A DNA stretch of 64,000 nt from Bacilli bacterium (GTDB lineage: Bacteria; Bacillota_I; Bacilli_A; RF39; UBA660), in the NCBI GenBank assembly GCA_017433415.1, contig JAFRHI010000027.1:20615-84614 (forward strand), read 5' to 3'. Positions 4,630-25,473 of the stretch are shown piece after piece. Made by a program: the position numbers and the translations under genes. Under the pieces are notes generated by a model. That model was not told the DNA's origin. It ran no database searches and worked only from the letters and a program-made list of their open reading frames with translations. Position 1 is the first letter of the stretch. Each line of letters starts with the position of its first letter.

Positions 4630-4652
4630 AATTAATCTAAAGGAGGATACGA

Positions 4653-5471: not shown

Positions 5472-5472
5472 G

Positions 5473-8467: not shown

Positions 8468-8469
8468 AT

Positions 8470-10353
8470 ATGAATAATAATGCTGAAAGAGATACAAAGA
8501 AGGCGATTGATAGATTATCAACCGTTTCTTCTTCAGCATCATCTAATACATTAGATTTAGTAGATAAAGGTGCAAAGAAGTTATCAGATGTACGAGAAGA
8601 ACGAGAATTAAGGGCATTAGAAGGCGAGAATAATGACAATATAGAAGATACAGGTTCACGATTAAAAACTTCTGAAAATGTCCAAGAAACAGTAAATACA
8701 GAAGGTGTAGAAGTATCTGAAGAATCAACAAGTAGAATAAAAACTAATGTTAATGCTTCAGCATCTAAGGTTAATGTTGAAAAGAGTGAAGGAGTGAGCA
8801 AATCCGAAGCTACTCCTAAGACAAGTAAACTAAAAACTTCTGTTTCAAAAGCTGTTCAAAAGACTTTTAAATTTAATGATAATCAGGGAAAAATTTCTAA
8901 AGCAATGACAGTTGTTAGTAAAACTGGAAGCAAAGCTTCAAAAGCAGGTAGAACTGTTACAAGGACATCAAGAGAATTGAATAAAGCAATGAGTAATGAT
9001 GGAACAGGAACAGAGTATATAAATGATAAGATAGGTCGTAAAGTTAAAACTAAGAGTTATAAAATAGCGAAAAAAGGAGCTAAAAAACTACAAAAAAAAT
9101 TTAATCAAACACTTGGTAAAAAATTAGTTCAAGTTGCTAAGACAGTTTTAATTAAACTTTTAAAATTACTTATTTCAATATTTACAGCAGCAGCTGAATT
9201 TATAATTCCAGTTGCCTTAGTGGTTTTGATTATAGTAGCGATATGTTCAATATTTGGTAGTGGTTCATCTAATGATAAATCAATAACTGATTATTCATCT
9301 TATATGAAATCTGTTCAAGCAGAATACAATAAACAAGTGGATGATTGGAAACGAATGAATCCAACAGGTATTGTTGTAGGTGTTAAAGGTGAATATGGTC
9401 AAATTGATTGGAGAATACCACTTGCGATTATGCAATCAACAGGAGCTGAATTAAGTTTTGATTCTGATGAAAAGAGTTTACTTGATACTTTTAAATCAGC
9501 AGGATTATATGAAAAGCATGAAGTGGTATATCAAGAAGTAGAAGGCAGTAGTTCAACTCCAACACAATCAACTACATTTAACACACCGTCAACCACACCA
9601 CAATATAGTACAGAAATAACTCCAGCAAATAATCAAGCAAATACAATTCCTGTTTTAGTAATTACGAATGGTGTTTATGAAGACTATTTAGAATGGTTAA
9701 ATAAAAATTATTCTAAGATAGCAGATTTTAATAAAAAGAAAAAAGTAACAGATGGATCTGATACTTCGCTCTCATATGATCAAAAAGAAATGTTAGAATT
9801 ATTATATCAATCTGATGATTTTGCTGAATTATTAGGAAATGATTTTGTTACTCATACGCCTGTGTATGGTAAAAATGAAACAAAGGCAGATTTAAAGAGT
9901 GATAATTATAATTCTAAAAATACATTAGCAACATCTGGATTTAAAGGTCAATGTACTTGGTATTCATTTGGTAGGGCACTAGAAATATCAGGAATGAAGA
10001 TGCCTACTGGTAATGCTCAGACTTGGCTTACATCAGCCATTGCTATGGGATATAAAACAGGCACACAACCATCAACAAATTCTGTTGTGGTATTGATGGG
10101 ACACAAGTATGGTCATGTTGCTTATGTTGAAGCTTATGATGGAAAAACTATAACAATTAGTGAAGGAAATGTTGGTAATAAGTGTAGTAGTGATGATACT
10201 TGTAGTCAAGTTGAATATGCTAATGAACACGCTGAAGAATTAGTTAGAACCAAAACTTATTCTTCATTTGATGCTTATAGAAAAGCAAGTAAGAATAGTG
10301 GATTAACAGTAGTAGGATTTATATATTTAGATAAAGAAAAGGAGAAACAATGA
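8470..10353 (+). CDS. PrgK-like cell-wall hydrolase with C-terminal CHAP domain
   Basis: 627 aa; central TM; CHAP catalytic Cys (FKGQCTWYSFGRA) and His (GHKYGHVAYVEAYDG). Confidence 0.8.
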   Translation: MNNNAERDTKKAIDRLSTVSSSASSNTLDLVDKGAKKLSDVREERELRALEGENNDNIEDTGSRLKTSENVQETVNTEGVEVSEESTSRIKTNVNASASKVNVEKSEGVSKSEATPKTSKLKTSVSKAVQKTFKFNDNQGKISKAMTVVSKTGSKASKAGRTVTRTSRELNKAMSNDGTGTEYINDKIGRKVKTKSYKIAKKGAKKLQKKFNQTLGKKLVQVAKTVLIKLLKLLISIFTAAAEFIIPVALVVLIIVAICSIFGSGSSNDKSITDYSSYMKSVQAEYNKQVDDWKRMNPTGIVVGVKGEYGQIDWRIPLAIMQSTGAELSFDSDEKSLLDTFKSAGLYEKHEVVYQEVEGSSSTPTQSTTFNTPSTTPQYSTEITPANNQANTIPVLVITNGVYEDYLEWLNKNYSKIADFNKKKKVTDGSDTSLSYDQKEMLELLYQSDDFAELLGNDFVTHTPVYGKNETKADLKSDNYNSKNTLATSGFKGQCTWYSFGRALEISGMKMPTGNAQTWLTSAIAMGYKTGTQPSTNSVVVLMGHKYGHVAYVEAYDGKTITISEGNVGNKCSSDDTCSQVEYANEHAEELVRTKTYSSFDAYRKASKNSGLTVVGFIYLDKEKEKQ

Positions 10354-10766
10354 AAAAAGGAAAAATAATTTTTATAGCTGTTGTTGCAGTAATCTTTTGT
10401 ATAGCAGTTCCAGTAATTCTAAATAGAGGAGCAATTCAAAGAAAATTAGAAGCAATTAGACAAGAAGAAGCAGAAAAAGAAAAATACGAGGAAATGCTTA
10501 AAGCTGATGAAATTGCTCCTATATTAATTCTTTCTCAAGATAAAGTTATTATGTATCAAGGAGATGAACTTAATTATAAATCATTTATTAAAGAAGCATC
10601 TGACAACTTAGAAGGAGATTTAACAGATAAAGTTAAATATAACGAATTAGATATAAATCAAGTTGGTGAATTTGTTGTAGATTATGAAATAAGTGATACA
10701 GCACTTAATATAACAAAAGCAGAGCTTCAAGTAATTATTAAAGAAAAACCAAACTTTAAATACTAA
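10350..10766 (+). CDS. membrane-anchored DUF5011/Ig-like domain protein
   Basis: 138 aa; N-terminal TM; domain ...GDELNY...EGDLTDKVKY...VGEFVVDYEISD... is paralogous to the next gene; ATGA overlap with the upstream gene. Confidence 0.5.
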   Translation: MKKGKIIFIAVVAVIFCIAVPVILNRGAIQRKLEAIRQEEAEKEKYEEMLKADEIAPILILSQDKVIMYQGDELNYKSFIKEASDNLEGDLTDKVKYNELDINQVGEFVVDYEISDTALNITKAELQVIIKEKPNFKY

Positions 10767-10789
10767 AATAATGAAGGGAGAATTTTACT

Positions 10790-11548
10790 ATGAGTGATGA
10801 AGAATTATTGACTAAATATCGTGAATATAAGAAGAAGAGAATGATTATTATTTCAATTATTGTTCTCTTTTTTATATTGATAGCAGGTTTAATTTTATAT
10901 TTTCATTTTAATAATACTTCATCTACTGATTTAGAAGAAAAACCAAAAGAAGATGTAATAGTAAAGGATGAAGAAGCTCCAATTATTAAATTAAAAATAG
11001 AAGAATTAGAAGTTAAGAAAGGGGATGATATAAACTACATTGAATATGTAGAAAGTGTTGAAGACAAAGTTGATGGTGATTTAATAGAAGAATTAAAATA
11101 CGAAGAGATTGATACTTCAAATGTTGGAGAACAATCTATTGTATATAGTGTTAGTGATAAATCAGGAAACACAAGTCAAGCAGTATTAAAGGTTATTGTT
11201 AAAGAACAAGAAGCACCAGAAGAACCTGAAACTCCTGAAGAAAATAAATCTACTGAAAGTAGAAAAACTCCACCAAAAGAAGAATCTAATAATAAAAATA
11301 CAGGCACAACTCAGCAACCACAACAACAACCAAAACAAGAACAACCTAAGCAAGAAGAACCTCCAAAACAAGAAAATAATACTTCTGGAAAAGTGGTAAA
11401 ATATTTTCTTTTTTCTGATGGATATACAATGCTTAATGTAGCTGATGCTTGTGCTTCTGAATTAAAGAAAACAAATAGAACTGGTATGTGTAGTCCTATA
11501 CAGGATGAAAATGGTATCTATTTAGGAATGAAACTAGAAACAAATTAA
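10790..11548 (+). CDS. membrane-anchored DUF5011/Ig-like domain protein with P/Q/E-rich linker
   Basis: 252 aa; N-terminal TM; ...GDDINY...DGDLIEELKY...VGEQSIVYSVSDKSGN...; low-complexity PQ-rich segment. Confidence 0.5.
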   Translation: MSDEELLTKYREYKKKRMIIISIIVLFFILIAGLILYFHFNNTSSTDLEEKPKEDVIVKDEEAPIIKLKIEELEVKKGDDINYIEYVESVEDKVDGDLIEELKYEEIDTSNVGEQSIVYSVSDKSGNTSQAVLKVIVKEQEAPEEPETPEENKSTESRKTPPKEESNNKNTGTTQQPQQQPKQEQPKQEEPPKQENNTSGKVVKYFLFSDGYTMLNVADACASELKKTNRTGMCSPIQDENGIYLGMKLETN

Positions 11549-11566: not shown

Positions 11567-11848
11567 ATGAAAGAAATATTTACAGAAAAAGAATATACTG
11601 AAGCTGTTCAAAAAGCTAATGAAAAAGTCATGAATGATTTTTATAGTAATTTAAATAATTATTCACCTTTTGATAATTATGTGGATTTAAATAATTATGA
11701 AATAACAGATGAAGAATTCAGATTGCTATGGAGATGTCAAGAGTTATTACAATACTATGATGCAAATAAAAAAATGCTTGGTAATAATTGTATTAATATT
11801 TTTGATTCGTTAAAAGAAAAATATATGAATTCATTTAAGGAAGATTAA
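11567..11848 (+). CDS. hypothetical protein
   Basis: 93 aa ORF with SD aaaggag. Confidence 0.5.
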   Translation: MKEIFTEKEYTEAVQKANEKVMNDFYSNLNNYSPFDNYVDLNNYEITDEEFRLLWRCQELLQYYDANKKMLGNNCINIFDSLKEKYMNSFKED

Positions 11849-11850
11849 AA

Positions 11851-12066
11851 ATGAATAACGAATATATAAAAAAATTATTTGAAGAGAATAAAGAAAAGTT
11901 TGTTCAAGCAGGTATGGATATATTATCACCTGAGGATCTAAAAGATACAATGATTTCTTATATTACTTCAAATATGCAATATGATTTTGATATTGATGTT
12001 TTAGAAAGTAAATTATTTAATCAAGATACTATTGAGCAAGACTTAGAAGAAGATTTAGAGAAGTAA
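11851..12066 (+). CDS. hypothetical acidic protein (tail EEDLEK)
   Basis: 71 aa ORF, tightly packed after the previous gene. Confidence 0.5.
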   Translation: MNNEYIKKLFEENKEKFVQAGMDILSPEDLKDTMISYITSNMQYDFDIDVLESKLFNQDTIEQDLEEDLEK

Positions 12067-12083
12067 ATTTTTTTAGTTTAAAT

Positions 12084-12111
12084 GTCTACTATTGTGGACA
12101 AAAGAAAGGAT
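12084..12111 (+). promoter_or_regulatory. conserved 28-nt block, copy 1: imperfect palindrome GTCTAC-TATT-GTGGAC plus SD
   Basis: tgtctactattgtggacaaaagaaagga ends 8 nt before the ATG of the XRE gene; 27/28 identical to 15564..15591. Confidence 0.55.
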
Positions 12112-12119
12112 AAAAATTT

Positions 12120-12497
12120 ATGAAAAATAATTATAGTTTTATTGCTGAAGTATTTAGAAAAAGAAGAGTTGAATTAGGTTATAGTAAAAGAAAACTAGCA
12201 GCCATTATTGGAATTAGTGATACAGAAATATCAAGAATTGAACATGGTGAAAGAGAAAACTACAATTTAGTTACATTAATAAAATTATGTGAAGTTTTAA
12301 AAATAGACTTTATTCATTTGCTAGTATTAGCTGGTTATCTTCCATCAGATCAAATTAATAACGAGGATAATATAACAGAAATGGAATCATTGTTAGATGA
12401 TGAATGTGATGATATTAATGATGAAGAATGTGATGCTTGTCCATTATGTGAACCAATAGAAATTATTATAACTTTAGTATCTGGGAGGGATAAATAA
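12120..12497 (+). CDS. XRE-family helix-turn-helix transcriptional regulator
   Basis: 125 aa; HTH signature LGYSKRKLAAIIGISDTEISRIEHGER; acidic C-terminal part with C-x7-C-x2-C-x2-C. Confidence 0.75.
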   Translation: MKNNYSFIAEVFRKRRVELGYSKRKLAAIIGISDTEISRIEHGERENYNLVTLIKLCEVLKIDFIHLLVLAGYLPSDQINNEDNITEMESLLDDECDDINDEECDACPLCEPIEIIITLVSGRDK

Positions 12498-12835
12498 TGG
12501 ATATTTTAATAATTAGTAATGAGAATAATATTCTTCATATTTTTAATGATGGATATAAATGTGATTATACAATCTATAATTCAAAAGGTCATAACATGGA
12601 TGGTGGTGTATTAGATTTTGATGAAAAAGTATCTAATAAAGAATCAACAGATGAGATTATAAAAATGATTCAAGATAGATTTTTATTTAATGCACCATAT
12701 ACTTGTTTATCTGGTGATAAAGCACAAAATTTATTAGAGCTAATTGAAATGGAAGATTATAAAAATTTACAGCACCAAATAGAGAATAAGTCAGTAAATA
12801 ATAAAGAAGTAAATGATATAGAAATTAATATTTAA
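12497..12835 (+). CDS. hypothetical protein (tail NDIEINI)
   Basis: 112 aa; start overlaps the upstream stop (taATG). Confidence 0.5.
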   Translation: MDILIISNENNILHIFNDGYKCDYTIYNSKGHNMDGGVLDFDEKVSNKESTDEIIKMIQDRFLFNAPYTCLSGDKAQNLLELIEMEDYKNLQHQIENKSVNNKEVNDIEINI

Positions 12836-12852
12836 TAGAAAAGGAGAAAAAT

Positions 12853-13434
12853 ATGAGAAAATTTTATGATGATTTTATTCAACAAAAACCAAAAGAAATG
12901 TCAAAGACGCTTGAGGATATAGTTTTTAAATATACTAATCCTGAAACGCATCAACCAACAAAAGTTCCTGCTTCTCACTTTGAAAAAGAATTTGGACAAG
13001 AAGTAGAAAGGGCAATTAGCCAATCAGTTAATAGACAATTTTTAACAATTATGTATGGACAATTAAATGCTTTAAAGAAAGATAATGAACAACTTTTTTA
13101 TCAAGCTTTAATATGTATTGATAACAATTTAAATCCAAAAGATTTAAGACTATCAGAACAAATCGCAATAAATCATACTTATGATTATATTCAAGATAAA
13201 CAAAGAACTGAGAAAAAAGAATTCCATTTCTTCAATCAAGAAATATCTAATGAATATCATAGAGCAATCACAGATCCTAATATTCAAGCAGAGGCAATGG
13301 AAATATCTAATTTTCTTGAAAATCAAGAATCAATTGAATTAAATCGTATAAAACAGGATACTGAACAACAACTTAATTCAAATTCTAATAATGAATATGA
13401 AATGGAAAATGACGATATGGAAATGGATTATTAA
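12853..13434 (+). CDS. hypothetical protein (tail DDMEMDY)
   Basis: 193 aa; SD aaaggag. Confidence 0.5.
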   Translation: MRKFYDDFIQQKPKEMSKTLEDIVFKYTNPETHQPTKVPASHFEKEFGQEVERAISQSVNRQFLTIMYGQLNALKKDNEQLFYQALICIDNNLNPKDLRLSEQIAINHTYDYIQDKQRTEKKEFHFFNQEISNEYHRAITDPNIQAEAMEISNFLENQESIELNRIKQDTEQQLNSNSNNEYEMENDDMEMDY

Positions 13435-13455
13435 TTTATATGAAAGGAGATTTGT

Positions 13456-14472
13456 ATGTATAGTAAAATAGAAAACTTTTTATTAGATGTAAAGGCAAAT
13501 GATGAAGTCTTTGATTATCAACAAAAAGAGTATAAACTTCATAAAGAGCATTATGATGATAGATTTGATCTTTTATATATTAAAGAAAATCAAAACACTT
13601 TAAGACAAAATCGCAGTTATTATAATTTGTGTGGTTATTATGATAACAAAGACCATTGTATATATAATGCTGAAAATTTTTTAACTGATAAAATACAAGA
13701 AAGTGATGTTATAAGGTTTGACAGATTTGATAATTTAAATCAAAAAATTTTAAATGAAGTAAAACAATATATAAATGACTATTGTTTTGCTCACGAAAAA
13801 GATTTAACTAAATTAGCTCAAGAAAAATATGATACAAAGGATGATACAAGATTATTTGAATATAAAAAAGAAATTAATAAACTTTTTATTACTAAGGATA
13901 ATCCAACAGCAGATTTAACAATCTCAATCAGTAATTATGACATTGATTATGATAATAATATTATTTCATATTTAAATAATCCAAAAAAAGCAATAGAAGA
14001 AATATCTAAAAGATTTATTGAAAGAAACGGAAAAAGTTATGGATTAGAATTATTAATTTATCATGATAAGGTAAGCTATTTAAAAGAATTACAAGAGAAT
14101 AAAGATAATGCTTATGACAATATACATTCTTGTAAAAAAATTCTAGATGCTATTAAGTATGTAGATGCTAAAACAGTTAATATTACAATTCAATATGGTG
14201 AGAAGAGTTTAACATTTAAATATGAACTTGATGATTTAAGAAGTGCATTATCAAGTGGTAAAATGGAAACTTCAACTTATAATAATGGATATGGAATAGT
14301 ATCAGAATTTGTTAAAGCAAATGATCCAAATATTACTGATAAGAATCAATGGAGATGTCCATTTTCAATTCCTACAATTAGTTCTATAACAAGTGGTAGA
14401 AACGAAATATATTCCAAAGAAACCCCAAGCATTGAAAAAGAAGTAGAAGAAGATTTGGAAATAGAAATGTAA
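13456..14472 (+). CDS. hypothetical protein, paralog 1 of a tandem pair (tail EEDLEIEM)
   Basis: 338 aa; colinear similarity to 14494..15549, including an identical 19-aa block DAKTVNITIQYGEKSLTFK. Confidence 0.6.
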   Translation: MYSKIENFLLDVKANDEVFDYQQKEYKLHKEHYDDRFDLLYIKENQNTLRQNRSYYNLCGYYDNKDHCIYNAENFLTDKIQESDVIRFDRFDNLNQKILNEVKQYINDYCFAHEKDLTKLAQEKYDTKDDTRLFEYKKEINKLFITKDNPTADLTISISNYDIDYDNNIISYLNNPKKAIEEISKRFIERNGKSYGLELLIYHDKVSYLKELQENKDNAYDNIHSCKKILDAIKYVDAKTVNITIQYGEKSLTFKYELDDLRSALSSGKMETSTYNNGYGIVSEFVKANDPNITDKNQWRCPFSIPTISSITSGRNEIYSKETPSIEKEVEEDLEIEM

Positions 14473-14493
14473 TTTAAGGGGTGATAATTAAAT

Positions 14494-15549
14494 ATGGATA
14501 TAGAAAGATTTCTTTTAAACTCTGATGTTAATGATTTAATTTTTGAAGGTACTTATAATCATCAAAAAATTCATAAAGAAAAATTTGATGATAGATTTGT
14601 AGTTATATATACAAAAACAAATCATAGTTATTTATCACAAGATAATTATGAAGTAGCTGGATATTTGGATACAAAAGATAGAGTATTATATGATTGCACT
14701 TATTATCTAAATGAATTATTACCTAAAGAAAAGAATTTAATTAAACAAAGTTCTTTTGGCGTTTTAGGTGAAAAACTATGGAATGAAATAGAGGATTATA
14801 TTGAAAAATATTCTTTTGCAAATGAAGATAAACTAAAAGAAATCGCTACTGAAAAATATGACAATTTAGAAGATTATAGAAAAGAAGTTTACAAACGAGA
14901 TGTCAGGCAACAATTTGTTCAAGAAATGAAACCAATAATAAAACTTCAAAGATCATATTCCAGTTATGAGTTTACTAATCTTCCAGAGTATAGAGGTCAT
15001 TATATAGATGTGGAATATTTAAATAGTCCTCAAGAAACTGTTGAAAAATATTCTAATAAAATAATAGAAACTATTGATGATTATAGAAATAATAAAGAAA
15101 ATTTAGGATTAGAATTATTAATCTTTCGTGATAAAATCAAATATTTAGATGTTATAAAAGATAATAAAAATAATGAATTCAAGGATCTATATATTAAAAG
15201 AGAAATATATAATTCTATCAAAGATATAGATGCTAAGACAGTTAATATTACAATTCAATACGGTGAGAAGAGTTTAACATTTAAATTTGATTATAGTGCA
15301 TTAAAGAGAGATTTAACAAATGATAGTAAAGGTAGCTGTGGATATGGTAAATCGTATGAAGAAGTATCAAATTTTATTAAGGAGAATTCTGATAAAGAAG
15401 TGAATAGATGGACAGAAGACTTTAATTTTTCAAATATAACTTCTATTACCTATGGAAAGAATGAATTATATCATCACGATTTATCATCTTCAAAAAATAT
15501 GGAAGAAGATATTCAGGAACAAGAGGAAGACATTGAAATAGAAATGTAA
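14494..15549 (+). CDS. hypothetical protein, paralog 2 of a tandem pair (tail EEDIEIEM)
   Basis: 351 aa; see paralog 1. Confidence 0.6.
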   Translation: MDIERFLLNSDVNDLIFEGTYNHQKIHKEKFDDRFVVIYTKTNHSYLSQDNYEVAGYLDTKDRVLYDCTYYLNELLPKEKNLIKQSSFGVLGEKLWNEIEDYIEKYSFANEDKLKEIATEKYDNLEDYRKEVYKRDVRQQFVQEMKPIIKLQRSYSSYEFTNLPEYRGHYIDVEYLNSPQETVEKYSNKIIETIDDYRNNKENLGLELLIFRDKIKYLDVIKDNKNNEFKDLYIKREIYNSIKDIDAKTVNITIQYGEKSLTFKFDYSALKRDLTNDSKGSCGYGKSYEEVSNFIKENSDKEVNRWTEDFNFSNITSITYGKNELYHHDLSSSKNMEEDIQEQEEDIEIEM

Positions 15550-15563
15550 TATTTTACTCAAGG

Positions 15564-15591
15564 TGTCTACTATTGTGGACTAAAGAAAGGA
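15564..15591 (+). promoter_or_regulatory. conserved 28-nt block, copy 2
   Basis: tgtctactattgtggactaaagaaagga ends 7 nt before the TTG start at 15599. Confidence 0.55.
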
Positions 15592-15598
15592 GGATTTA

Positions 15599-15979
15599 TT
15601 GATAAATAAAGAGAATAAGTGGTTAGATTTTATTGCAGGAATAAATACAATCATGGTATCTAATGAAGAAGAATTTAATAAGTTTCGGAAATTCTTAGAT
15701 GATTTGGGTATAGGAAAAATATTAAATGATTATAGAACATTTTCAGATTGGCAGCATTTATCTGAAATAAATAATAAGAATCCAAATTATATTGTTTTTG
15801 AATTTCAAATAACAAAAGGTTTGACATTTGGATATACAAAAGAATCATCTAAAGATTGGTTTGGCGTAGAACCATTAAATGTTAAAGATTTGGAATCGTT
15901 TTATAAGAATAGTAAATTATTAAGTATGAAATTTGAAAAGAAAAATGAATTAGATTTAGATGAAGAAATAGAAAAATAG
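15599..15979 (+). CDS. hypothetical protein (TTG start; tail LDEEIEK)
   Basis: 126 aa; SD aggagga upstream of the TTG. Confidence 0.5.
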   Translation: MINKENKWLDFIAGINTIMVSNEEEFNKFRKFLDDLGIGKILNDYRTFSDWQHLSEINNKNPNYIVFEFQITKGLTFGYTKESSKDWFGVEPLNVKDLESFYKNSKLLSMKFEKKNELDLDEEIEK

Positions 15980-15995
15980 AAAAGGAGAAATTTAT

Positions 15996-16367
15996 ATGTT
16001 TAATCAAACTTTACTTGTAGGTAGAATTGTAGCAAATCCAGAAATAAGACAAACAGAAGCAGGAAAAAATTATGCTAGTATTACAATAGCAGTTCCAAAA
16101 CCATACACCAATGAAGAAGGAGTTCATGAAGCTAATTTTATAGATTTAACAGCGTGGAATGATAGGGTAGTAAAAAAATCAGATCATTTATTAAAGGGTG
16201 ATTTAGTTCTTATCGAAGCATCAATACAAACTAGATTAGTAGAAAAAGATGGACAAAAAATTAAATATACTGATATTGTTGCTGATAATATTAATTATTT
16301 AAATCATAGCAAAAACCAAGACAAAACATTACAAAACGATGAGGTTGAAGAGGAGATGGATATATGA
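15996..16367 (+). CDS. ssb: single-stranded DNA-binding protein
   Basis: 123 aa; OB-fold N-terminus MFNQTLLVGRIVANPEIRQTEAGKNYASITIAV; acidic C-terminal tip EVEEEMDI. Confidence 0.8.
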   Translation: MFNQTLLVGRIVANPEIRQTEAGKNYASITIAVPKPYTNEEGVHEANFIDLTAWNDRVVKKSDHLLKGDLVLIEASIQTRLVEKDGQKIKYTDIVADNINYLNHSKNQDKTLQNDEVEEEMDI

Positions 16368-16567
16368 TAATTAGAGATGATATTGAACTTGAAATAGTAT
16401 ATTCAAAAGAAGAAAAAATTGTTTATATTGGTACACCTTCATCTTCTGGTGCTAAGTATAAATGCGAAACAATTGATGATTTAAAAAAATCAATTGATAG
16501 TTATATTGAAAGCTATGTAGAATATGATAAAATTCCAACACATGAAGATATTGAAATAGATAAATAA
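16364..16567 (+). CDS. hypothetical protein (tail EDIEIDK)
   Basis: 67 aa; ATGA overlap with ssb; GGAG SD lies inside the ssb tail. Confidence 0.5.
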   Translation: MIIRDDIELEIVYSKEEKIVYIGTPSSSGAKYKCETIDDLKKSIDSYIESYVEYDKIPTHEDIEIDK

Positions 16568-16570
16568 TTA

Positions 16571-17128
16571 ATGAAAACTAGAATTTTTATTGATATGGAT
16601 GGTACTCTTGCTGAATGGAGAGATATAAAATCAAATAGTGAACTTTATGAAAAAGGTTATTATGAATCTTTAAAACCTAATAATTTTTTGTTAGAAGAAG
16701 TAAAGAATCTTATTAAAGAGGGAAAGGATATTTATATTCTTTCTTCTTTTTTAAGTGATAGTAATTATGCTCTAAAAGAAAAAAATCTTTGGTTAAATAA
16801 ATATCTTCCAGAGTTACCAATTCAAAAAAGAATTTTTGTTCCTTATGGTGATGTTAAATATAAGTATTTACCAAGTAAGATAACAGCGTTTGATTATTTA
16901 GTTGATGATCATACAAAAAATCTTCTTGATTGGAAAGATGCAGGAGGAACTGGAATAAAGTTTTTAAACGGAATAAATCATATTAAAGGAGTGTGGCAAG
17001 GATTACTTTTAAGAGAAGATGAAGATATATCTAAGAATTTTAACTGGATTCTTGATAATTGTTTTAAAGAACCTATAAAGTCTTTTGAATTTCAAAATTT
17101 AGAAGAAGATTTAGAAGTGGAAATATGA
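16571..17128 (+). CDS. HAD-superfamily 5'(3')-deoxyribonucleotidase (NT5C-like)
   Basis: 185 aa; HAD motif I FIDMDGTLAEW; length and layout resemble NT5C-type enzymes; tail EEDLEVEI. Confidence 0.6.
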   Translation: MKTRIFIDMDGTLAEWRDIKSNSELYEKGYYESLKPNNFLLEEVKNLIKEGKDIYILSSFLSDSNYALKEKNLWLNKYLPELPIQKRIFVPYGDVKYKYLPSKITAFDYLVDDHTKNLLDWKDAGGTGIKFLNGINHIKGVWQGLLLREDEDISKNFNWILDNCFKEPIKSFEFQNLEEDLEVEI

Positions 17129-17340
17129 AAGGAGAATATAAATTGAATAAAGCATTAGAAAAGAAAATTGAAAAATTAGAAGGTTTAAAAAAGAAGGAAT
17201 TAGAAAAAATAGATGCGATTAATGTTGTAATATCTGACTATGATAAGCAATTAAAAGTTTTATATGATTATAAAAAGCAACAAGAAAAAATTTATCAAAT
17301 GCAACAAGATCTTGATACCAAAATTTTAGGAGATAAATAA
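17125..17340 (+). CDS. hypothetical coiled-coil protein
   Basis: 71 aa, Lys/Glu heptad-like sequence; ATGA overlap upstream. An in-frame TTG at 17143 after aaaggag is an alternative start. Confidence 0.45.
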   Translation: MKGEYKLNKALEKKIEKLEGLKKKELEKIDAINVVISDYDKQLKVLYDYKKQQEKIYQMQQDLDTKILGDK

Positions 17341-18284
17341 TGAATTTAGTTCGTGAAAAAATATCTCCGAACGGATATAGAAGATTAAATGTTGATATAA
17401 ATATTCAAGAAAATGAAGAACCTAACCACGATAATGTGTTTTGGTATGGAGGAGAAGTAGCAAGTATAAAGTCTTCAGAAGGAGAATATAAAATTGTTGC
17501 TAGAGGAATAGTATCGTGTAATTTAATTGCAAAAAAAGATTATATAATGCCTGATGGTGAAGAAATAAAAGCAGGTAATATAATAGCTCATGTTAAAGAT
17601 AAAAATGAAGTAGGAGCATTTAAAAAAGAAATGTCATTATATATAAAAAATGACAAAGAATTATCTGATATTATATATAACAAACACAAATTATTTAAAT
17701 TAGAAGTTGATAATAATAATTGGTTTGAATTGTCTTTTTATAATAATGAAGGAGAAATTGAGTATGATGATGTTATGAGTTCATTGTATTTAAAAGATGC
17801 AGTAGAAGAAGTTTTAGATATGATTTGGGAACAAAATAAAGATAATAAATTATATTCAATTTACTGTCGTGTAGCAAATTCAGATGGTGGAACATTAAAT
17901 GCAATAAAAAGCCAAATCGATAAATGTTTATATTCAATCAATCAAAATGCTAAAGGAAATACAGAACTAATTAGAATTTATTTTGATAGATGTTCTGGAT
18001 TAAAGAATCATGAAAAAGCATTTGGAAAAGCATTAGAAGATATAAAGAATAATAAGACACTAGATTTATATTCTGTTAATATTTCACGATTATCAAGAGA
18101 TGTAAAAAGAATGATAGATATAAGGGAAATATTAAAAGATAGTGAATCAGATATATTTGTTGTTAATGAAAATGCTTATGTATATAAAGAATTATTTAAT
18201 CAAATTACCATTCCAATATTTTATGAAATGACAGATAAAGAAATAGCTGAAGAACCTGAAATGGATGAAATAGAATATGAGTAA
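17340..18284 (+). CDS. unknown N-terminal domain fused to a resolvase-like (serine recombinase catalytic) domain lacking the nucleophile Ser
   Basis: 314 aa. The C-terminal half aligns by eye with gamma-delta resolvase: YCRVANSD (vs Y-x-RVS-T), FDRCSG (vs D-K-ASG), ISRLSRD (vs LDRLGRD). The catalytic Ser position is Ala. Confidence 0.6.
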   Translation: MNLVREKISPNGYRRLNVDINIQENEEPNHDNVFWYGGEVASIKSSEGEYKIVARGIVSCNLIAKKDYIMPDGEEIKAGNIIAHVKDKNEVGAFKKEMSLYIKNDKELSDIIYNKHKLFKLEVDNNNWFELSFYNNEGEIEYDDVMSSLYLKDAVEEVLDMIWEQNKDNKLYSIYCRVANSDGGTLNAIKSQIDKCLYSINQNAKGNTELIRIYFDRCSGLKNHEKAFGKALEDIKNNKTLDLYSVNISRLSRDVKRMIDIREILKDSESDIFVVNENAYVYKELFNQITIPIFYEMTDKEIAEEPEMDEIEYE

Positions 18285-19224
18285 ACTTCCTAAAACAAGA
18301 CAAGAATTAATTGATATGTATATCAAAAGTTTAGAGGAAGGAAATATTCCATGGGAGCAAATGTGGAAGACTTCCATTCCTGAAAATGCTATTTCTGGAA
18401 TAAAATATAGAGGTGTAAATAATTTATATTTATCATACATTGCATATAAAAGAGGATATAAAGATAATAGATGGATAACATTTAATCAAATGGGAAAAAA
18501 GCATTGGAAGTTTATTAATTCTGCAAAAGGTCAAGGTGTACCAGTAGAATGGTGGGCAATGAAAAATAAAAGAGATAATAAGATAATTAGTTTTGAAGAA
18601 TATAATAAAATAATAGAAGAAAATCCAGATAAAGAAAAAGAATTTAAAATAAGTAAAATGAGTTATACAGTTTTTAATGGTGATTTAGTTGATGGATTAG
18701 TTAATGATAAAGTAGAACAAAAACAAGAAATTATTAGCAATGATTATATTCAAAATATTATTGATAATATTGGTGTAGGATATAAAGAAGAAGGAGAAGA
18801 AGCTTATTATAGTCCTTCTAAAGATATGGTTGTTTTACCACCATCAAATAGTTTCAAAACAAGCAATTCTTATTATGCTACACAGCTTCATGAACTTGCT
18901 CATTCAACAGGACATGAAACAAGATTAGCAAGAAATCTTAAAGATCATTTTGGAACAGAGGGTTATGCTAAAGAAGAATTAAGAGCAGAGATTAGTTCTT
19001 CTTTTTTAATGCAAAAGTTTCATCTAGAAGAAGATACAAGACATTTAAATAATCATAAAAGTTATGTTAAAAACTGGTTAGAAATATTAAAAAACAATCC
19101 ACAAGAATTATTTAATGCAATAACTGATGCTAATAAAATTGTTGATTATTTAGAAGAAAATAGTATTAAAAAAGAGAAAAATCAAACCATTGATTTAGAA
19201 CAAGAAATGGAGATGGATATATGA
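18277..19224 (+). CDS. ardC: ArdC-like antirestriction protein (ssDNA-binding N-domain + zincin metalloprotease domain)
   Basis: 315 aa; N-terminal ...EEGNIPWEQMW...YRGVNNLYL...; C-terminal HExxH QLHELAHSTGHE. Confidence 0.8.
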   Translation: MSKLPKTRQELIDMYIKSLEEGNIPWEQMWKTSIPENAISGIKYRGVNNLYLSYIAYKRGYKDNRWITFNQMGKKHWKFINSAKGQGVPVEWWAMKNKRDNKIISFEEYNKIIEENPDKEKEFKISKMSYTVFNGDLVDGLVNDKVEQKQEIISNDYIQNIIDNIGVGYKEEGEEAYYSPSKDMVVLPPSNSFKTSNSYYATQLHELAHSTGHETRLARNLKDHFGTEGYAKEELRAEISSSFLMQKFHLEEDTRHLNNHKSYVKNWLEILKNNPQELFNAITDANKIVDYLEENSIKKEKNQTIDLEQEMEMDI

Positions 19225-19562
19225 TTGAAGAATTTAATAAAATAAAAGAATATTCGGCATCATTTAATAATTATAATATTTATGATTATTGTTTCTTCAT
19301 AGGATTAACAAATGTAAAAGAAAATATACCTAATGATGAACTTGAATTATTAATAAAAAAATGTGGAGAAGTTCATAGTGATTATACAGATCCAATTGAA
19401 TTAGGTCAATCACTTGCAAACGAAATATATACAGAAAAAAATATAACAATAGATGATATAAAGTCATTGACGGTGGATGAATTCTATAACTGGTACGATG
19501 ATGGAAGAGAAGTTGGAAATCCAATTGAAATAGATTCTTTAGATGAAAGGGAGATTGATTAA
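19221..19562 (+). CDS. hypothetical protein (tail LDEREID)
   Basis: 113 aa; ATGA overlap with ardC. Confidence 0.5.
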   Translation: MIEEFNKIKEYSASFNNYNIYDYCFFIGLTNVKENIPNDELELLIKKCGEVHSDYTDPIELGQSLANEIYTEKNITIDDIKSLTVDEFYNWYDDGREVGNPIEIDSLDEREID

Positions 19563-19563
19563 T

Positions 19564-19896
19564 ATGAATGTATTCTCTATATATAAAGCAATGCCAGAAG
19601 TTCATAGAAATAATTTAAAATCTTATTATATTCTTGAAGGAATATATGATTGTTTTCCTGATATAGCTGAAGAAGATGCTAAATTTATTCATAACATTTC
19701 ATTAAAAGTTGAAAATGAAAATATAAATCCTTATTCAATTTCGCATTATTTGACAGATCATTATACAAGAGGAAATATAACAAAAGAAGATTTAGAAAAA
19801 GCATCCTCTGGTGAAATTTGTGAAGCAGTATATTTTAATAATTTAGATTATATGAATTTAGAAAAAGAGTTAAATGAGGAGGAAAAAGAGATATGA
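19564..19896 (+). CDS. hypothetical protein (tail EEEKEI)
   Basis: Track ORF starts at 19543. The ATG at 19564 follows SD agggag and sits 1 nt after the upstream stop. Weakly similar to the preceding ORF (NITKEDLEKAS vs NITIDDIKSLT). Confidence 0.5.
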   Translation: MNVFSIYKAMPEVHRNNLKSYYILEGIYDCFPDIAEEDAKFIHNISLKVENENINPYSISHYLTDHYTRGNITKEDLEKASSGEICEAVYFNNLDYMNLEKELNEEEKEI

Positions 19897-20291
19897 AATC
19901 ATATAAATCAGATAGAAAAAATAATAAAAAAGCGATTAGAAAAATTCAAAAATTAATTGATTCTTCAAAATTAAATCCTTTTATTTTATTTCATTATACA
20001 GCTCTAAAAGAATCAGAATTAGAAAGTAATAGAGAATCAATGGTAAGTTTAATTAAATATAATAATAAGGTTATTTCACAATTAAAAGAAGAAATAAAAG
20101 ATAAAAATATTTGCGAAGTTCATAAAGAAATTGTTAAAAAATATATTGATGAATTGGAGTATTCTAATGGAACTTCTAAGGAAGTTATTAGAATAATAAA
20201 TCTTAAAAAAAGAGAATTTTATCATAAAAAATTACAAAAAAATTACAATAAATTTTTCAAAAAAAATACTAAACTGTCAGCGACTATTTAG
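19893..20291 (+). CDS. hypothetical basic protein adjacent to the candidate oriT
   Basis: 132 aa, Lys-rich; ATGA overlap upstream. Confidence 0.5.
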   Translation: MKSYKSDRKNNKKAIRKIQKLIDSSKLNPFILFHYTALKESELESNRESMVSLIKYNNKVISQLKEEIKDKNICEVHKEIVKKYIDELEYSNGTSKEVIRIINLKKREFYHKKLQKNYNKFFKKNTKLSATI

Positions 20292-20406
20292 TGGGTTTTA
20301 GGGATATTCCCTAACAAGCTTAGGGGTGTGTCAACACCATGCTTGATAGATTATATTTCTATACTCTGTAAGGGGTACTTTCTACTGAAGTTAGAAAGGA
20401 GCAAAT
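20292..20406. other. candidate origin of transfer (oriT)
   Basis: 115-nt, relatively GC-richer intergenic region just upstream of the relaxosome genes. Hairpins: ttaggga-tat-tccctaa (20298-20314); aagc..ggtgt-gtca-acacc..gctt (20316-20344); ctttcta-N7-tagaaag (20378-20398). Confidence 0.45.
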
Positions 20407-20967: not shown

Positions 20968-21742
20968 CAAATTAAGAAGACAAAAGATTAATGTGATGCT
21001 TAATGAAGAAGAACGAAAAATAATTAAAGAAAAAGCTATTAAGTATGGCTTTGGAGATTGCTTAGCTGAATATATAAGAGCAGCCTGTATATATGAAAAT
21101 ATTTATATTGAGGATGTTCATGGAAAAGAAAAAGTTTGCAACAAGGTTAGTGAATATATAAAAGAATTGAGAGAAATATTAAATGCTCAAAGAAAATTAA
21201 TGAAAAATGTTTTTCTGACAAAAGATGATATTGATAAAATAAAAAATCAAAATCAACAAATCATAGAAAAGATAGGCAGATTATCAAGAATAATAATTTC
21301 TTCATTGTCTGTTGTTTCGGAAAAGAAAATTCAACAAAGAATTAATATGATAGAAAAATATGATTCAGATAAACTAATACCTAAGATACAAATAGCTGGT
21401 GAATGGGGATTGGTGTTAAGACCTTCTAATTTATATCATCCTAATGAACCAGCTATATATATTGTTTTTCTACCAGAATACTATGATGAAATTGAAATCA
21501 ATAATTTTGATCCAGATAAGTTTAAAGAAAAAATTGATAACTATCGTCATATTGCTATGAAAAAGGAATTATATATTTCTATATATCATTTCAATGACAA
21601 ATTAAGATATGGTATTGTGATGCCTTTTGTAGATAAAGAATCAGCAACAAAATATGCAGAAGAAATGGAAGCAGATTATGTCTATGATTTATATAGTCAG
21701 CAAGTTGAAATGGATGGTGATATTTATTCCAGCAACAGCTAG
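20942..21742 (+). CDS. MobC-like relaxosome protein with long C-terminal extension
   Basis: 266 aa; N-terminal RRQKINVMLNEEERKIIKEKAIKYGFGDCLAEYIRAA resembles the MobC/RHH mobilisation signature; directly upstream of the relaxase. Confidence 0.55.
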   Translation: MNNQDEKYNKLRRQKINVMLNEEERKIIKEKAIKYGFGDCLAEYIRAACIYENIYIEDVHGKEKVCNKVSEYIKELREILNAQRKLMKNVFLTKDDIDKIKNQNQQIIEKIGRLSRIIISSLSVVSEKKIQQRINMIEKYDSDKLIPKIQIAGEWGLVLRPSNLYHPNEPAIYIVFLPEYYDEIEINNFDPDKFKEKIDNYRHIAMKKELYISIYHFNDKLRYGIVMPFVDKESATKYAEEMEADYVYDLYSQQVEMDGDIYSSNS

Positions 21743-24446: not shown

Positions 24447-25187
24447 ATGAAAAAAATAAAAATACTTTTTTTATTAGTATTATTATCTTCCTTGATATAC
24501 TGTGCATTTAGAATATATAAAATATACAAAGAAGAAAAAGATGCAGTAGATATTAAAGAAGAATTAATTGAGTTAATAGATATTCCTGAGATACCACCTG
24601 AAGAACCATCATTTAGTGTTGACTTTACTGAATTAAAAAATATCAACCCAGATGTTGTTGGTTGGATTGTAGTTGAAGGAACACAAATTAATTATCCTAT
24701 TGTTCAAGGAAAAAATAATTCATTTTATTTAAATCATTCCTATGATAAGAAATGGAGTGGATTTGGAAGTATTTTTATGGATTATAAATCCTCATCTGAT
24801 TTTACTGATTACAATACTTTTATATATGGTCATCACACGAAAGATGGTTCAATGTTTGGCGAATTATATAAATATTTGGATGAGGGATTTTATAATGCTC
24901 AGCCATTTTTTTATTTATATACTCCTACTAAAAATTATAGAGTAGAAGTATTTAGTGCTTATGTTAATAAGAGTGACTCCGATTCATATAAAGATAAATT
25001 CTCTTCAATAGATGATTATCAAATGTATTTAAATTATATAATTGATAAAAGTAATTACAAAACAAATACCAAGATTGATGTCAATAAAGATAAAATAATT
25101 ACATTATATTCTTGTTCAAGAGAAGGTAATTGGGCGAAAAATGACAGGTATTTTATACATGGAAAACTCATAGATTTAAACGAGTAG
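24447..25187 (+). CDS. sortase (class B-like), ICE-encoded
   Basis: 246 aa; N-terminal TM; His motif FIYGHH; Cys motif IITLYSCS. Paralogous to the chromosomal ORF 54563..55549. Confidence 0.75.
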   Translation: MKKIKILFLLVLLSSLIYCAFRIYKIYKEEKDAVDIKEELIELIDIPEIPPEEPSFSVDFTELKNINPDVVGWIVVEGTQINYPIVQGKNNSFYLNHSYDKKWSGFGSIFMDYKSSSDFTDYNTFIYGHHTKDGSMFGELYKYLDEGFYNAQPFFYLYTPTKNYRVEVFSAYVNKSDSDSYKDKFSSIDDYQMYLNYIIDKSNYKTNTKIDVNKDKIITLYSCSREGNWAKNDRYFIHGKLIDLNE

Positions 25188-25212
25188 TGCTATTGCAATG
25201 AAAGGAGATTAA

Positions 25213-25332: not shown

Positions 25333-25372
25333 TTTTAAGAAGTAGAAGTATTTAGAAGTAAATATTCAAATA

Positions 25373-25464: not shown

Positions 25465-25473
25465 AGGAATGAT

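Follow-up and report, generated by a model that had tools for sequence, protein, structure and literature searches.

An accessory gene block beside a pC221/pCF10-type oriT in an ICE of an uncultured Bacilli bacterium, and the acidic C-terminal tail found on most of its products

The window analysed here, a stretch of 64,000 nucleotides, contains an element that is strongly supported as an ICE of an uncultured low-GC Bacilli gut bacterium (MAG). Every ICE gene lies on the + strand; the gene content includes T4CP, VirB4, TrbL_2, PrgI, CHAP, sortase and serine recombinase genes, with a primase, a methyltransferase and adhesins upstream, and the right end is marked by the sortase and the large serine recombinase, beyond which chromosomal rpsP, uppS, cdsA, rseP and priA are found. 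A block of 17 ORFs at 11567–20291, all on the + strand and spaced by -20 to +53 nt, is flanked by T4SS genes on one side and by a conserved non-coding core on the other, followed by genes for an RHH protein and a PF03432 relaxase (Table 1). The dense coupling of the ORFs, a candidate oriT at about 20.3 kb and a relaxase gene on its far side had all been described in an earlier, sequence-only reading of this DNA, and are confirmed here. The same ORF set is annotated in the public record of the contig. Between 142 and 20291, neither a + strand terminator nor a surplus of promoter-like sites was detected, and no two neighbouring genes are more than 53 nt apart. Taken together, there is strong support for the block being the distal accessory part of a long + strand conjugation gene array, situated just upstream of a pC221/pCF10-type (MOBP7) oriT. 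The block ORFs are real genes, since their order, length and protein sequence (approx. 40–100% identity) are kept in nine related genomes and dozens of metagenome loci; the last of them, 19893, whose 3' end overlaps the oriT core, has a homologue in only one (L015) of the nine genome loci.

Table 1. Coordinates, assignments and C-termini of the ICE features in the window (ORFs are named in the text by their start)
Feature	Position	Strand	Assignment	C-terminus
Left context	142-11548	+	C-terminal part of DnaG/Toprim primase, 1127 protein, T4CP, TrbL_2, PrgI, VirB4-like ATPase, CHAP hydrolase, two membrane proteins (precomputed Pfam)	
T4CP	2322-4265	+	precomputed Pfam	
VirB4-like ATPase	6050-8467	+	precomputed Pfam	
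CHAP hydrolase	8470-10353	+	precomputed Pfam	
ORF, 93 aa	11567-11848	+	no family; L008-L013 homologues 44-82% identity	no acidic tail, SFKED
ORF, 71 aa	11851-12066	+	no family	tail-like, LEEDLEK
XRE-type HTH protein, 125 aa	12120-12497	+	Pfam HTH_3 E 1.9e-10; PHROG transcriptional regulators	no tail
ORF, 112 aa	12497-12835	+	weak LPD16 match (domain of polyvalent proteins)	tail NDIEINI
Orphan all-alpha protein, 193 aa	12853-13434	+	no family; variable linker before tail	tail DDMEMDY
Orphan protein, 338 aa	13456-14472	+	no family; paralogue of 14494	tail EEDLEIEM
Orphan protein, 351 aa	14494-15549	+	no family; 40% identity to 13456	tail EEDIEIEM
ORF, 126 aa	15599-15979	+	no family	tail DEEIEK
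SSB, 123 aa	15996-16367	+	PF00436 E 1.5e-20	family tail EEEMDI
ORF, 67 aa	16364-16567	+	no family	tail EDIEIDK
HAD-type 5'(3')-deoxyribonucleotidase (NT5C), 185 aa	16571-17128	+	PF06941, PHROG 2643	tail EDLEVEI
ORF, 71 aa, Lys/Glu/Leu-rich	17125-17340	+	no family	no tail
Resolvase-like protein, 314 aa	17340-18284	+	unknown N-terminal domain and Resolvase domain	tail MDEIEYE
ArdC, 315 aa	18277-19224	+	ArdC-N ssDNA-binding domain and HExxH metallopeptidase	tail EQEMEMDI
ORF, 113 aa	19221-19562	+	no family	acidic end LDEREID
ORF, 117 aa (110 aa from start 19564, public gene call)	19543-19896	+	no family	EEEKEI
Basic ORF, 132 aa	19893-20291	+	no family	no tail
Conserved oriT core	20271-20349	+	IR1, CAAGC, IR2, AT, GCTTG; predicted nic 20345|20346	
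oriT IR1	20298-20314	+	TTAGGGA-TAT-TCCCTAA	
oriT CAAGC	20315-20319	+		
oriT IR2	20325-20338	+	GGTGT-GTCA-ACACC, then AT	
oriT GCTTG	20341-20345	+		
Protein, 186 aa	20407-20967	+	no family	
NikA/MobC-like RHH relaxosome accessory protein, 266 aa	20942-21742	+	Pfam NikA-like E 5e-6	
Relaxase (MOBP7-like)	21684-23402	+	PF03432, Pfam E 1e-27	
SUFU-like protein, 246 aa	23417-24157	+	precomputed PF05076 on identical gene; relaxase side of oriT	tail ENEIEI
ORF, 96 aa	24154-24444	+	no family	tail NEEIEK
Right context	24447-27114	+	sortase 24447-25187, large serine recombinase 25474-27114	

Profile searches bore out the ssb, ardC and deoxynucleotidase genes proposed before. The nucleotidase matched PF06941 with 29 bits (cut-off 24.8) and the PHROG 5'-3' deoxyribonucleotidase family (E 6e-15), and carries a DMDGT motif; ArdC matched ArdcN (E 2e-18), MPTase-PolyVal (E 1e-38) and PHROG anti-restriction (E 2e-68). 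Block members missed by the earlier reading were the HTH_3 protein, a Resolvase domain at residues 174–293 of 17340 (Pfam E 4e-11), in which YCRVANSD aligns to YARVSTSQ of gamma-delta resolvase with the catalytic Ser lost (it is retained only in L015), and a sub-threshold LPD16 match in 12497 (E 1.8e-5, 24.9 bits, cut-off 27). Of the block ORFs, 11 have no hit in Pfam, PHROGs or NCBIfam, and 12497 has only the weak LPD16 signal; this agrees with the earlier statement that most of the remaining ORFs have no family, and neither profile nor structure searches characterised most of them. The suggested pairing of 13456 and 14494 was right: they are true paralogues. None of the 42 homologues of 13456 and none of the 167 of 12853 has a Pfam family; the AF2 model of the former (pLDDT 86, pTM 0.75, residues 325–338 disordered) had no match in PDB or BFVD, and that of the latter (pLDDT 81, tail disordered) none in PDB. 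Judged by what it encodes (ArdC and SSB), and by an orphan methyltransferase gene elsewhere in the ICE, an anti-defence role for the block is plausible, with the orphan ORFs as candidates.

The oriT candidate is real: its core of approx. 80 nt is nearly invariant in eight elements with divergent flanking genes, and folds as single-stranded DNA with z = -4.4. Downstream of it, the RHH protein scored 26.9 bits against the NikA-like profile (cut-off 27), and its L026 homologue has a precomputed match at E <= 1e-5; the 20407 protein, whose gene in relatives invariably separates oriT from the RHH gene, is possibly a second relaxosome accessory factor. The relaxase is 29% identical to pC221 MobA (E 5e-25) and 30% to pCF10 PcfG; its plasmid relatives are typed MOBP, and pC221/pC223 and pCF10 are grouped in the MOBP7 clade of PF03432 relaxases.

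The + strand of the window presents the oriT elements in the order known from pC221, namely IR1, CAAGC, IR2, a spacer of 2–3 nt and GCTTG, with an IR1 of GGGATATTCCC as against GGGATATAATCCC in pC221, and the same order is found in pCF10 (spacer 3 nt) and in a pC221-like Staphylococcus warneri plasmid. The pC221 nic was mapped experimentally to GCTTG|CCAAA on the sense strand (Table S1 of PMC5789077 gives the complementary sequence, as also in its entries for RP4, F, R388 and ColE1), and in the pC221 record the nic 10-mer lies on the mobC/mobA strand, 97 nt upstream of mobC; the bases 3' of the predicted ICE nic are ATAGA. In related elements the two arms of IR2 change together (GGTGT/ACACC, GGGGT/ACCCC, GGTCC/GGACC, GGCTC/GAGCC), and the AT-GCT(T/G)G that follows is constant; such constancy is confined to the sense strand, and on the opposite flank of IR2 the spacer varies. 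Based on this layout, the mapped pC221 nic and the covariation beside a fixed motif, it is probable that + strand cleavage by the relaxase takes place 3' of GCTTG, at 20345|20346, and that the block lies at the trailing end and enters last. With every ICE gene on the + strand, a nick there would leave none of them readable from the incoming strand. As caveats, the identity of the relaxase to MobA is only 29%, and GCTTG also follows IR2 on the minus strand, since CAAGC pairs with GCTTG in an outer stem.

The sequence-only reading had placed the nick in the minus strand at the 20.3-kb origin, which would make the block a true leading region, an anti-defence island that enters first and is expressed directly from the incoming strand. 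The block has features in common with the leading-region islands that Samuel et al. (2024, PMC11541004) described on conjugative plasmids: there, anti-defence and SSB genes are enriched beside oriT on the side opposite a typically lagging relaxase, with the T-strand as template, and the block is co-oriented as needed, has ssb, the anti-restriction gene ardC and many unknown small ORFs, and keeps its position in all relatives. The rule that the relaxase lies in the lagging region is also followed by the control, pSK41 nes, although the ArdC gene of pSK41 is on the lagging side. Against this stand the mapped sense-strand nic of pC221, the closest characterised family, the element order and invariant spacer, which fit the + strand only, and the five nucleotides preceding the minus-strand GCTTG, which vary in close relatives. 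Moreover, the block has no intergenic room or hairpin for an Frpo-like single-strand promoter, tailed accessory ORFs (see below) occur on the relaxase side too, and the predicted nick would make the T-strand of the block coding strand rather than template. We therefore regard a leading-region block as unlikely and the earlier polarity as probably wrong, so that the earlier interpretation as a whole is partly supported.

A closely comparable arrangement is found in the transfer region of pCF10 from Enterococcus faecalis (T4SS, PcfC, the ArdC-like PcfD, PcfE, oriT, the RHH protein PcfF and the MOBP7 relaxase PcfG), which has the same order and orientation, an ArdC-like gene just upstream of oriT, and IR1, IR2 and GCTTG on the sense strand; T4CP identity is 26%. 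Unlike the ICE, pCF10 is a plasmid, and no more than two genes separate its T4CP gene from oriT; its recognisable anti-defence genes, of the AcrIIA9 family, and their neighbours are encoded on the opposite strand past the relaxase gene, an arrangement that marks a leading region on that side. The pC221/pC223 module (oriT, mobC, mobA) shares the oriT position upstream of the accessory gene, whereas pC221, a small mobilisable plasmid, has neither a T4SS nor an accessory block.

At the C-terminus of most block proteins is a disordered tail of alternating acidic and hydrophobic residues (e.g. EDLEIEM, EMEMDI, EEIEK), the ones without it being 11567, 12120, 17125 and 19893. Under a strict rule, the tail was found on 9 of the 17 block ORFs and 2 of 58 elsewhere in the window (p = 8e-6); over eight loci it was present in 99 of 155 accessory ORFs and absent from T4SS, relaxosome and chromosomal proteins (2 of 123, the 31 chromosomal ORFs of the window being placed among these non-accessory ORFs), the internal background rate of the pattern being approx. 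1–2%. The same tail is carried by unrelated accessory proteins elsewhere in the ICE, among them the orphan methyltransferase and the products of two ORFs that precede the primase gene, and in relatives, where 19 of 31 accessory ORFs without a homologue in the window have it; in the left context only the 1127 protein does (EEEVEIAR). It is retained in 115 of the 120 closest ArdC homologues, in 40 of 42 members of the 13456 family and in 106 of 120 of the 12853 family, even in members of the latter with the linker deleted. pCF10 proteins have no such tail. We read the tail as probably a shared motif for docking on a single partner.

Bacterial SSBs end in an acidic-hydrophobic DDD(I/L)PF tip on a flexible linker, and the ICE SSB has the tail, which follows a different sequence pattern, in its place. 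The tail might therefore be SSB-C-terminus-like or autoinhibitory, docking on a DNA-metabolism hub (SSB partners, primase, ssDNA-bound complexes) or masking DNA-binding surfaces; with the same polarity, the proteins would function in the donor, or else in the recipient but not before the ICE is double-stranded. Acidic C-termini are common in DNA-binding proteins, and plausible DNA binders are tailed here (ArdC, SSB, methyltransferase, resolvase-like protein, L020 primase). However, the alternation is more specific than general acidity, the same patterned tail stands on the nucleotidase, the SUFU-like protein and many unrelated orphans (some 15–20 non-SSB proteins per element), and host-type SSBs in related elements retain the canonical tip (L021 DDDGLPFK, pCF10 DHDLPF); we consider this account improbable. 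Still less credible is a degron that would render the proteins short-lived and active only briefly around transfer: the tail is terminal, disordered and common to functionally unrelated proteins, and the element encodes the ArdC metallopeptidase, but known bacterial C-terminal degrons such as the ssrA tag are non-polar, not acidic, ArdC is itself tailed, and recognition of the tail by a protease is without support.

Our preferred reading, to which we assign a probability of roughly 0.5, combines polarity, establishment block and shared tail. After the + strand nick, the relaxosome genes, the SUFU-like gene, sortase and recombinase would enter first, then the left part of the ICE with the T4SS genes, and the block last; as the transferred strand carries every gene as coding strand, there would be no transcription in the recipient until the complementary strand is made. 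The block products, of establishment or anti-defence type (SSB, ArdC, dNMP nucleotidase, a catalytically dead resolvase-like protein, the HTH regulator and 11 orphans), would be synthesised in the donor alongside the T4SS, and the flexible (acidic-hydrophobic)n tail would dock most of them on one partner. More tentatively, this partner may be the coupling protein or the relaxosome, which are the most likely candidates, and the proteins may travel into the recipient with the DNA; if so, the tail would be a shared docking/export tag for donor-made establishment proteins.

Co-transfer of proteins by conjugative T4SSs is documented for pED208 SSB, PsiB and ParA, and reported for RP4 TraC1 and ColIb Sog primases and pSa ArdC, and the transferred classes (SSB, ArdC, primase) are those with the tail here. 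In F-like systems SSB, PsiB and others are translocated via C-terminal or internal signals; no shared sequence-defined signal exists in these systems, and known C-terminal signals are mostly positively charged or hydrophobic, not acidic, which speaks against export. In the Dot/Icm (type IVB) system, a short, disordered, Glu-rich C-terminal signal, the E-block, is found on many unrelated proteins of one secretion system, as the tail is here. The ICE tail differs in its strict alternation over the last 6–8 residues, and the ICE has a Gram-positive conjugative T4SS, not type IVB, and no DotM-like adaptor was found. The polyvalent proteins of conjugative elements and phages, proposed early effectors delivered with DNA (Iyer et al. 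2017, PMC5512222), overlap with the ICE in domains (ArdC-N, MPTase, weakly LPD16, and LPD1 in the relative L026), but are giant fused polypeptides, whereas the ICE distributes the functions over individual small proteins, each bearing a tail. The tail was also seen on a Toprim/DUF3991 primase and an ArdC of an unrelated MobL element of 53% GC.

The analysis demonstrated an accessory gene array of an integrative conjugative element (ICE) that adjoins a MOBP7-type origin of transfer (oriT) and carries a terminal motif common to unrelated proteins. The right-hand part of this ICE fills the left 27 kb of the window; within the chromosome, the element combines a coupling protein (T4CP), a VirB4-type ATPase, a cell-wall hydrolase and channel proteins with an integrase. 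On a contig that extends beyond the left edge of the window it also encodes SpaA/Flg_new adhesins, an orphan N6_N4 methyltransferase and a DnaG/Toprim primase of 937 aa. The GC content of the window is ~26%, and the + strand holds nearly all genes. Identical proteins are carried by ruminant-gut metagenome contigs, and the MAGs hosting related elements are labelled uncultured Bacilli, "Mollicutes" or "Tenericutes". Between 142 and 20291 neither a + strand terminator nor an excess of promoter-like sites was found, and gaps do not exceed 53 nt; in the donor, the block and the T4SS genes are presumably transcribed together. At the other end of the element, a CotE-like 89-aa ORF (27362-27631), possibly near the attachment site, separates the recombinase gene from the first post-ICE chromosomal gene (27693-28517), which is preceded by a perfect sigma-70 consensus promoter (27632-27660; TTGACA, 17 nt, TGxTATAAT). 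Genes for tRNA-Leu(CAA), tRNA-Thr(CGT) and tRNA-Thr(GGT) at 60419-60505 and 62586-62738 lie in the chromosomal part of the window and are unrelated to the block.

Features of the ICE and its oriT core, in window positions
Feature	Position	Strand, sequence or remark
T4CP gene	2322-4265	
TrbL_2, PrgI, VirB4-type ATPase and CHAP hydrolase genes		between T4CP gene and block
Accessory block	11567-20291	+
Non-coding region, 115 nt		3' of block
oriT core	20271-20349	
Inverted repeat IR1	20298-20314	TTAGGGA-TAT-TCCCTAA
CAAGC	20315-20319	
Inverted repeat IR2	20325-20338	GGTGT-GTCA-ACACC
AT, then GCTTG	20341-20345 (GCTTG)	
186-aa protein and NikA-like RHH protein genes		in this order after the non-coding region
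PF03432 relaxase gene	21684-23402	follows the RHH gene
SUFU-like protein, 96-aa ORF and sortase genes		in this order after the relaxase gene
Large serine recombinase gene	25474-27114	
rpsP, uppS, cdsA, rseP and priA		chromosomal, after the recombinase gene

The block and its recognisable genes are as the sequence-only reading had described them, according to gene calls and to Pfam and PHROGs searches: a dense array of 17 ORFs (named here by their start coordinates), all on the + strand with spacings of -20 to +53 nt, among which an SSB, an ArdC and an NT5C/HAD-type deoxynucleotidase were confirmed. The further claim that most of the remaining ORFs belong to no recognisable family was upheld, as 11 of the 17 had no match in Pfam, PHROGs or NCBIfam; outside these 11, 12497 has a sub-threshold match to LPD16, and Pfam and PHROGs also added an XRE-type HTH protein and a resolvase-like domain in 17340. 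Since order, lengths and sequences are kept in nine related genomes (relaxase 77-93% identical), the block ORFs are real genes, and the conservation extends to more distant metagenome loci (relaxase 31-67% identical). The proposed pair 13456/14494 proved to be paralogues that share 40% identity; their family has only 42 members in the database. The block ArdC is a putative anti-restriction protein by its domain architecture, an ArdC-N ssDNA-binding domain followed by an HExxH metallopeptidase (HELAH in the sequence), whereas the SSB departs from the canonical form: its OB fold is there (PF00436), with the DDD(I/L)PF tip replaced by EEEMDI. Together with the orphan N6_N4 methyltransferase elsewhere in the ICE, ArdC and SSB make up an enrichment in anti-defence, SSB and methyltransferase genes; for the orphan ORFs, Pfam, PHROGs and NCBIfam gave no match to any known anti-defence family. 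The domains occur as separate ORFs of 67-351 aa, not as one fused polypeptide, so that only the domain repertoire overlaps with that of polyvalent proteins. The resolvase-like protein 17340 (17340-18284) is probably not an active recombinase, because it has no DNA-binding C-terminal domain and has lost the catalytic serine (YCRVANSD against YARVSTSQ), as have most relatives, where RVA, RVD or RTD is found at this site; RLS is kept in one related locus (L015). AlphaFold2 models of 13456 and 12853 were confident (pLDDT 86 and 81) and had no PDB match in structure searches, nor did the 13456 model match BFVD; megablast of the block against plasmid and phage collections gave no match.

Most of the block proteins end in a short tail in which acidic and hydrophobic residues alternate, a new feature that the sequence-only reading had not reported, with the approximate consensus E-[EL]-[ED]-[ELMI]-E-[IML]-[ED]-x at the very C-terminus. 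It reads EEDLEIEM and EEDIEIEM in the 13456/14494 paralogues, EEEMDI in the SSB, EDLEVEI in the nucleotidase and EQEMEMDI in ArdC, and MDEIEYE, DDMEMDY, EDIEIDK, DEEIEK and NDIEINI in other block proteins. Under a strict rule, which asks for an uninterrupted alternation of 4 or more residues among the last 8, the tail is present on 9 of the 17 block proteins, against 2 of 58 other proteins of the window (p = 8e-6) and an internal background of 2-3%. Both ORFs that follow the relaxase gene have it as well, and to the left of the window (L003:4499-6947) it was seen on the orphan methyltransferase (DDYELER) and on a pair of small ORFs upstream of the primase (EEDIELDK, DLDLELER), so that tailed proteins are encoded at scattered sites of the ICE and not in the block alone. 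Proteins of the T4SS and the relaxosome, the sortase and the recombinase are without it, except for a tail-like end on the protein encoded at 1127. With a looser rule applied to eight loci, the tail was found in 99/155 accessory ORFs and 2/123 others, counts in which 31 chromosomal ORFs of the window had been moved from the accessory bin to the others; among accessory ORFs with no homologue in the window, 19 of 31 are tailed. It is kept in 115/120 close ArdC homologues, in 40/42 members of the 13456 family and in 106/120 of the 12853 family, where it survives loss of the preceding linker, and the relatives with 31-67% relaxase identity agree with this, FEIEI and IDYDI being among their variants.

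Three origins of the motif were considered and rejected. It is no Shine-Dalgarno or translational-coupling artefact: behind several tailed genes, a gap of 16-21 nt holds a GGAG-type site of its own, two others are followed by gaps of ~50 nt, and the tightly coupled T4SS genes have no tails. Low GC content does not account for the tail either, which is present in an element of 53% GC and nearly absent from the chromosomal proteins of the same window (1/43 under the strict rule). Conservation at the nucleotide level only is contradicted by 69 synonymous and 81 class-preserving changes in the tail codons, which also show 107 class-changing differences, partly register shifts.

The 53% GC element is an unrelated one of MobL type (L020:5703-8771), in which the tail is found only on a Toprim/DUF3991 primase (EEEPDIEMEVDM) and on ArdC (ADDYELEM), the two classes reported to be transferred in Gram-negative conjugation. 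Among distant ArdC representatives, 19/148 have the tail, against ~2% expected, and a further 26/148 end in a basic tail rich in Gly, Lys and Arg. In another low-GC element (L021:7692-11653), basic ends are common to ArdC (IMLGRAR), the products of the adjacent RadC (LGVMKR) and RNase T-like (GGRKR) genes, and a 72-aa ORF (KRGKGL). The basic tail may be a second class of shared C-terminal tag.

That an oriT candidate adjoins the block, with the relaxase gene beyond it, was confirmed by aligning the non-coding region of eight elements, which revealed a near-invariant core between diverging flanks; the block thus lies against oriT, opposite the relaxase gene. The core begins within the 3' end of a basic 132-aa ORF that runs into it (19893-20291). 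Among nine genome loci a homologue of this ORF was seen only in L015, the same DNA being non-coding in the other loci, and the conservation is therefore at the DNA level. As single-stranded DNA, the + strand of the core folds with z = -4.4. The layout is that of MOBP7, with oriT upstream of an accessory gene and an inverted repeat followed by GCTTG on the sense strand. Immediately upstream of the gene for the relaxase, at a conserved position, lies that of an RHH protein (NikA/MobC-like relaxosome accessory protein), NikA-like at 26.9 bits, 0.1 bit under the cut-off, and with no BLASTP match to pC221 MobC. The relaxase itself (PF03432, Pfam E 1e-27) shares 29% identity with pC221 MobA (E 5e-25) and 30% with PcfG, and no solved structure is related to it by sequence. 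Its relatives on plasmids (28-36% identity; mostly from Enterococcus, Lactococcus and Staphylococcus) are typed MOBP. Within the PF03432 relaxases, pC221/pC223 and pCF10 have been assigned to one clade, MOBP7 (PMC12084326). The clade is common in Firmicutes plasmids and ICEs.

As a rule, the relaxase gene lies in the lagging region and the transferred strand (T-strand) is the template of the leading-region genes (PMC11541004). This rule favours the sequence-only reading, according to which the minus strand is nicked and the block enters the recipient first. In pSK41, used as a control, the nicked strand is the template strand of nes, in agreement with the rule; oriT was located there with the sequence of the NES-DNA complex. 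The pSK41 order, with the relaxase entering last, was not carried over to the ICE, as pSK41 is MOBQ and has another nic motif. The ArdC-family gene of pSK41 (L016:2160-5922) lies on the lagging side, convergent with nes, which makes ArdC an unreliable leading-region marker in Gram-positive plasmids.

The mapped nic of pC221 is listed as TTTGG/CAAGC in a table that gives the nics of RP4, F, R388 and ColE1 as the complement of the nicked strand (PMC5789077, Table S1), and its nicked strand therefore reads GCTTG/CCAAA. This 10-mer occurs once in the pC221 record, 97 nt upstream of mobC and on the same strand as mobC and mobA, so that in the MOBP7 clade it is the sense strand that is nicked and the mob genes that enter first. 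Smith and Thomas are said to have placed the pC221 nic, in 2004, "in the sense strand"; the strand assignment made here is based on the table and the pC221 record. The order of elements in pC221, ...ATGGGATATAATCCCAT-CAAGC-...-IR-AAC-GCTTG/CCAAA, is collinear with that on the + strand of the window, TTAGGGATATTCCCTAA-CAAGC-TTAGG-IR2-AT-GCTTG/ATAGA, and pCF10 and a pC221-like Staphylococcus warneri plasmid have it likewise, upstream of the RHH gene and again on the sense strand. The IR2 stems of more distant relatives covary (GGTGT/ACACC, GGGGT/ACCCC, GGTCC/GGACC, GGCTC/GAGCC), and AT-GCT(T/G)G after IR2 is invariant on the sense strand, whereas the spacer between CAAGC and IR2, which would precede a minus-strand GCTTG, is variable in length as well as in sequence. 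Another candidate, a minus-strand nic after IR1 (AACCCAC...TAGTCGCTGACAGTT) that loosely resembles the MOBQ core AAGTGCGCC, was rejected as a weak match with a layout that does not fit.

By homology, the predicted nic is thus probably on the + strand, between 20345 and 20346, with the caveats that the relaxase has low identity to pC221 MobA and that GCTTG also follows IR2 on the minus strand. The sense-strand nic of pC221, the + strand collinearity and the covariation of IR2 beside an invariant AT-GCTKG all speak against a position of the block 3' of nic on the T-strand, and so against its early entry; it would instead be the last DNA to reach the recipient. Nor would the T-strand be the template of the block genes, as had been proposed: a nick in the + strand would make it the coding strand throughout. 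With all ICE genes on the + strand, the incoming strand could be the template of none of them. A check of the block for single-strand promoters (Frpo/ssi) found no gap >53 nt and no excess of promoter-like sites; an Rfam search of the block gave no match, a weak test given that the models searched include no Frpo-type element. In pCF10 (L025:10874-14515), genes for PcfJ, an AcrIIA9-family protein and PcfM lie beyond pcfG on the opposite strand, the orientation expected of a leading region if the sense strand is nicked, and an independent check of consistency. The "leading" assignment is probably inverted for the MOBP7 relaxase clade; the polarity shortcut appears to fail for pC221/pCF10 relatives, and surveys of leading-region anti-defence genes that rely on it would mislabel MOBP7 elements.

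Anti-defence genes beside oriT are a known concept, and the interest of this element comes from the conserved tail, a clear, unexplained and testable feature for which no description was found in the literature searched. It is simple to search for and links ~20 otherwise unrelated accessory proteins per element in a large family of gut ICEs. The tail is disordered in both AlphaFold2 models, 13456 and 12853, and represents an E-block-like situation, a shared disordered terminal motif on many unrelated proteins of one element. We consider it likely, with a probability of roughly 70%, that the tail is a common docking motif. Rival explanations are a hub-binding tail like the SSB tip or an autoinhibitory tail, and a degron. 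As the partner for docking, the coupling machinery is the foremost, albeit tentative, candidate. In an element with the predicted polarity, SSB, ArdC or the methyltransferase could protect the incoming DNA only by travelling with it. It is conceivable, if somewhat doubtful, that the tail is a sequence-defined recognition signal of the Gram-positive conjugative T4SS, marking ~15-20 effectors per ICE that are injected with the DNA, which would compensate for the lack of gene expression from the incoming strand; such a set would comprise SSB, ArdC, the methyltransferase, the nucleotidase, the SUFU-like protein and many orphans. The basic Gly/Lys/Arg tail may be used likewise by the second element family (L021). 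In F-like systems, SSB, PsiB and other proteins are translocated via C-terminal or internal signals (PMC8406263, PMC11288057), and pSa ArdC and the RP4 TraC1 primase have been reported as transferred (PMC5512222). However, most C-terminal signals known from conjugative systems are basic or hydrophobic, unlike the acidic tail, and the pCF10 proteins are without it. No shared signal for Gram-positive conjugation systems was found in the literature searched. Should the tail be a docking or export tag, the proteins that a Gram-positive conjugation system delivers to recipients could be listed and tested directly by means of it, and it would give access to a dozen orphan families with a possible role against the defences of the recipient.

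The 401-aa protein encoded at 1127-2332, whose gene is translationally coupled to that of T4CP, has no family, and a BLASTP comparison with ten pCF10 proteins, among them PcfB, gave no counterpart. Its N-terminal region is very basic and it ends in EEEVEIAR; it could be a partner or adaptor of the coupling protein.
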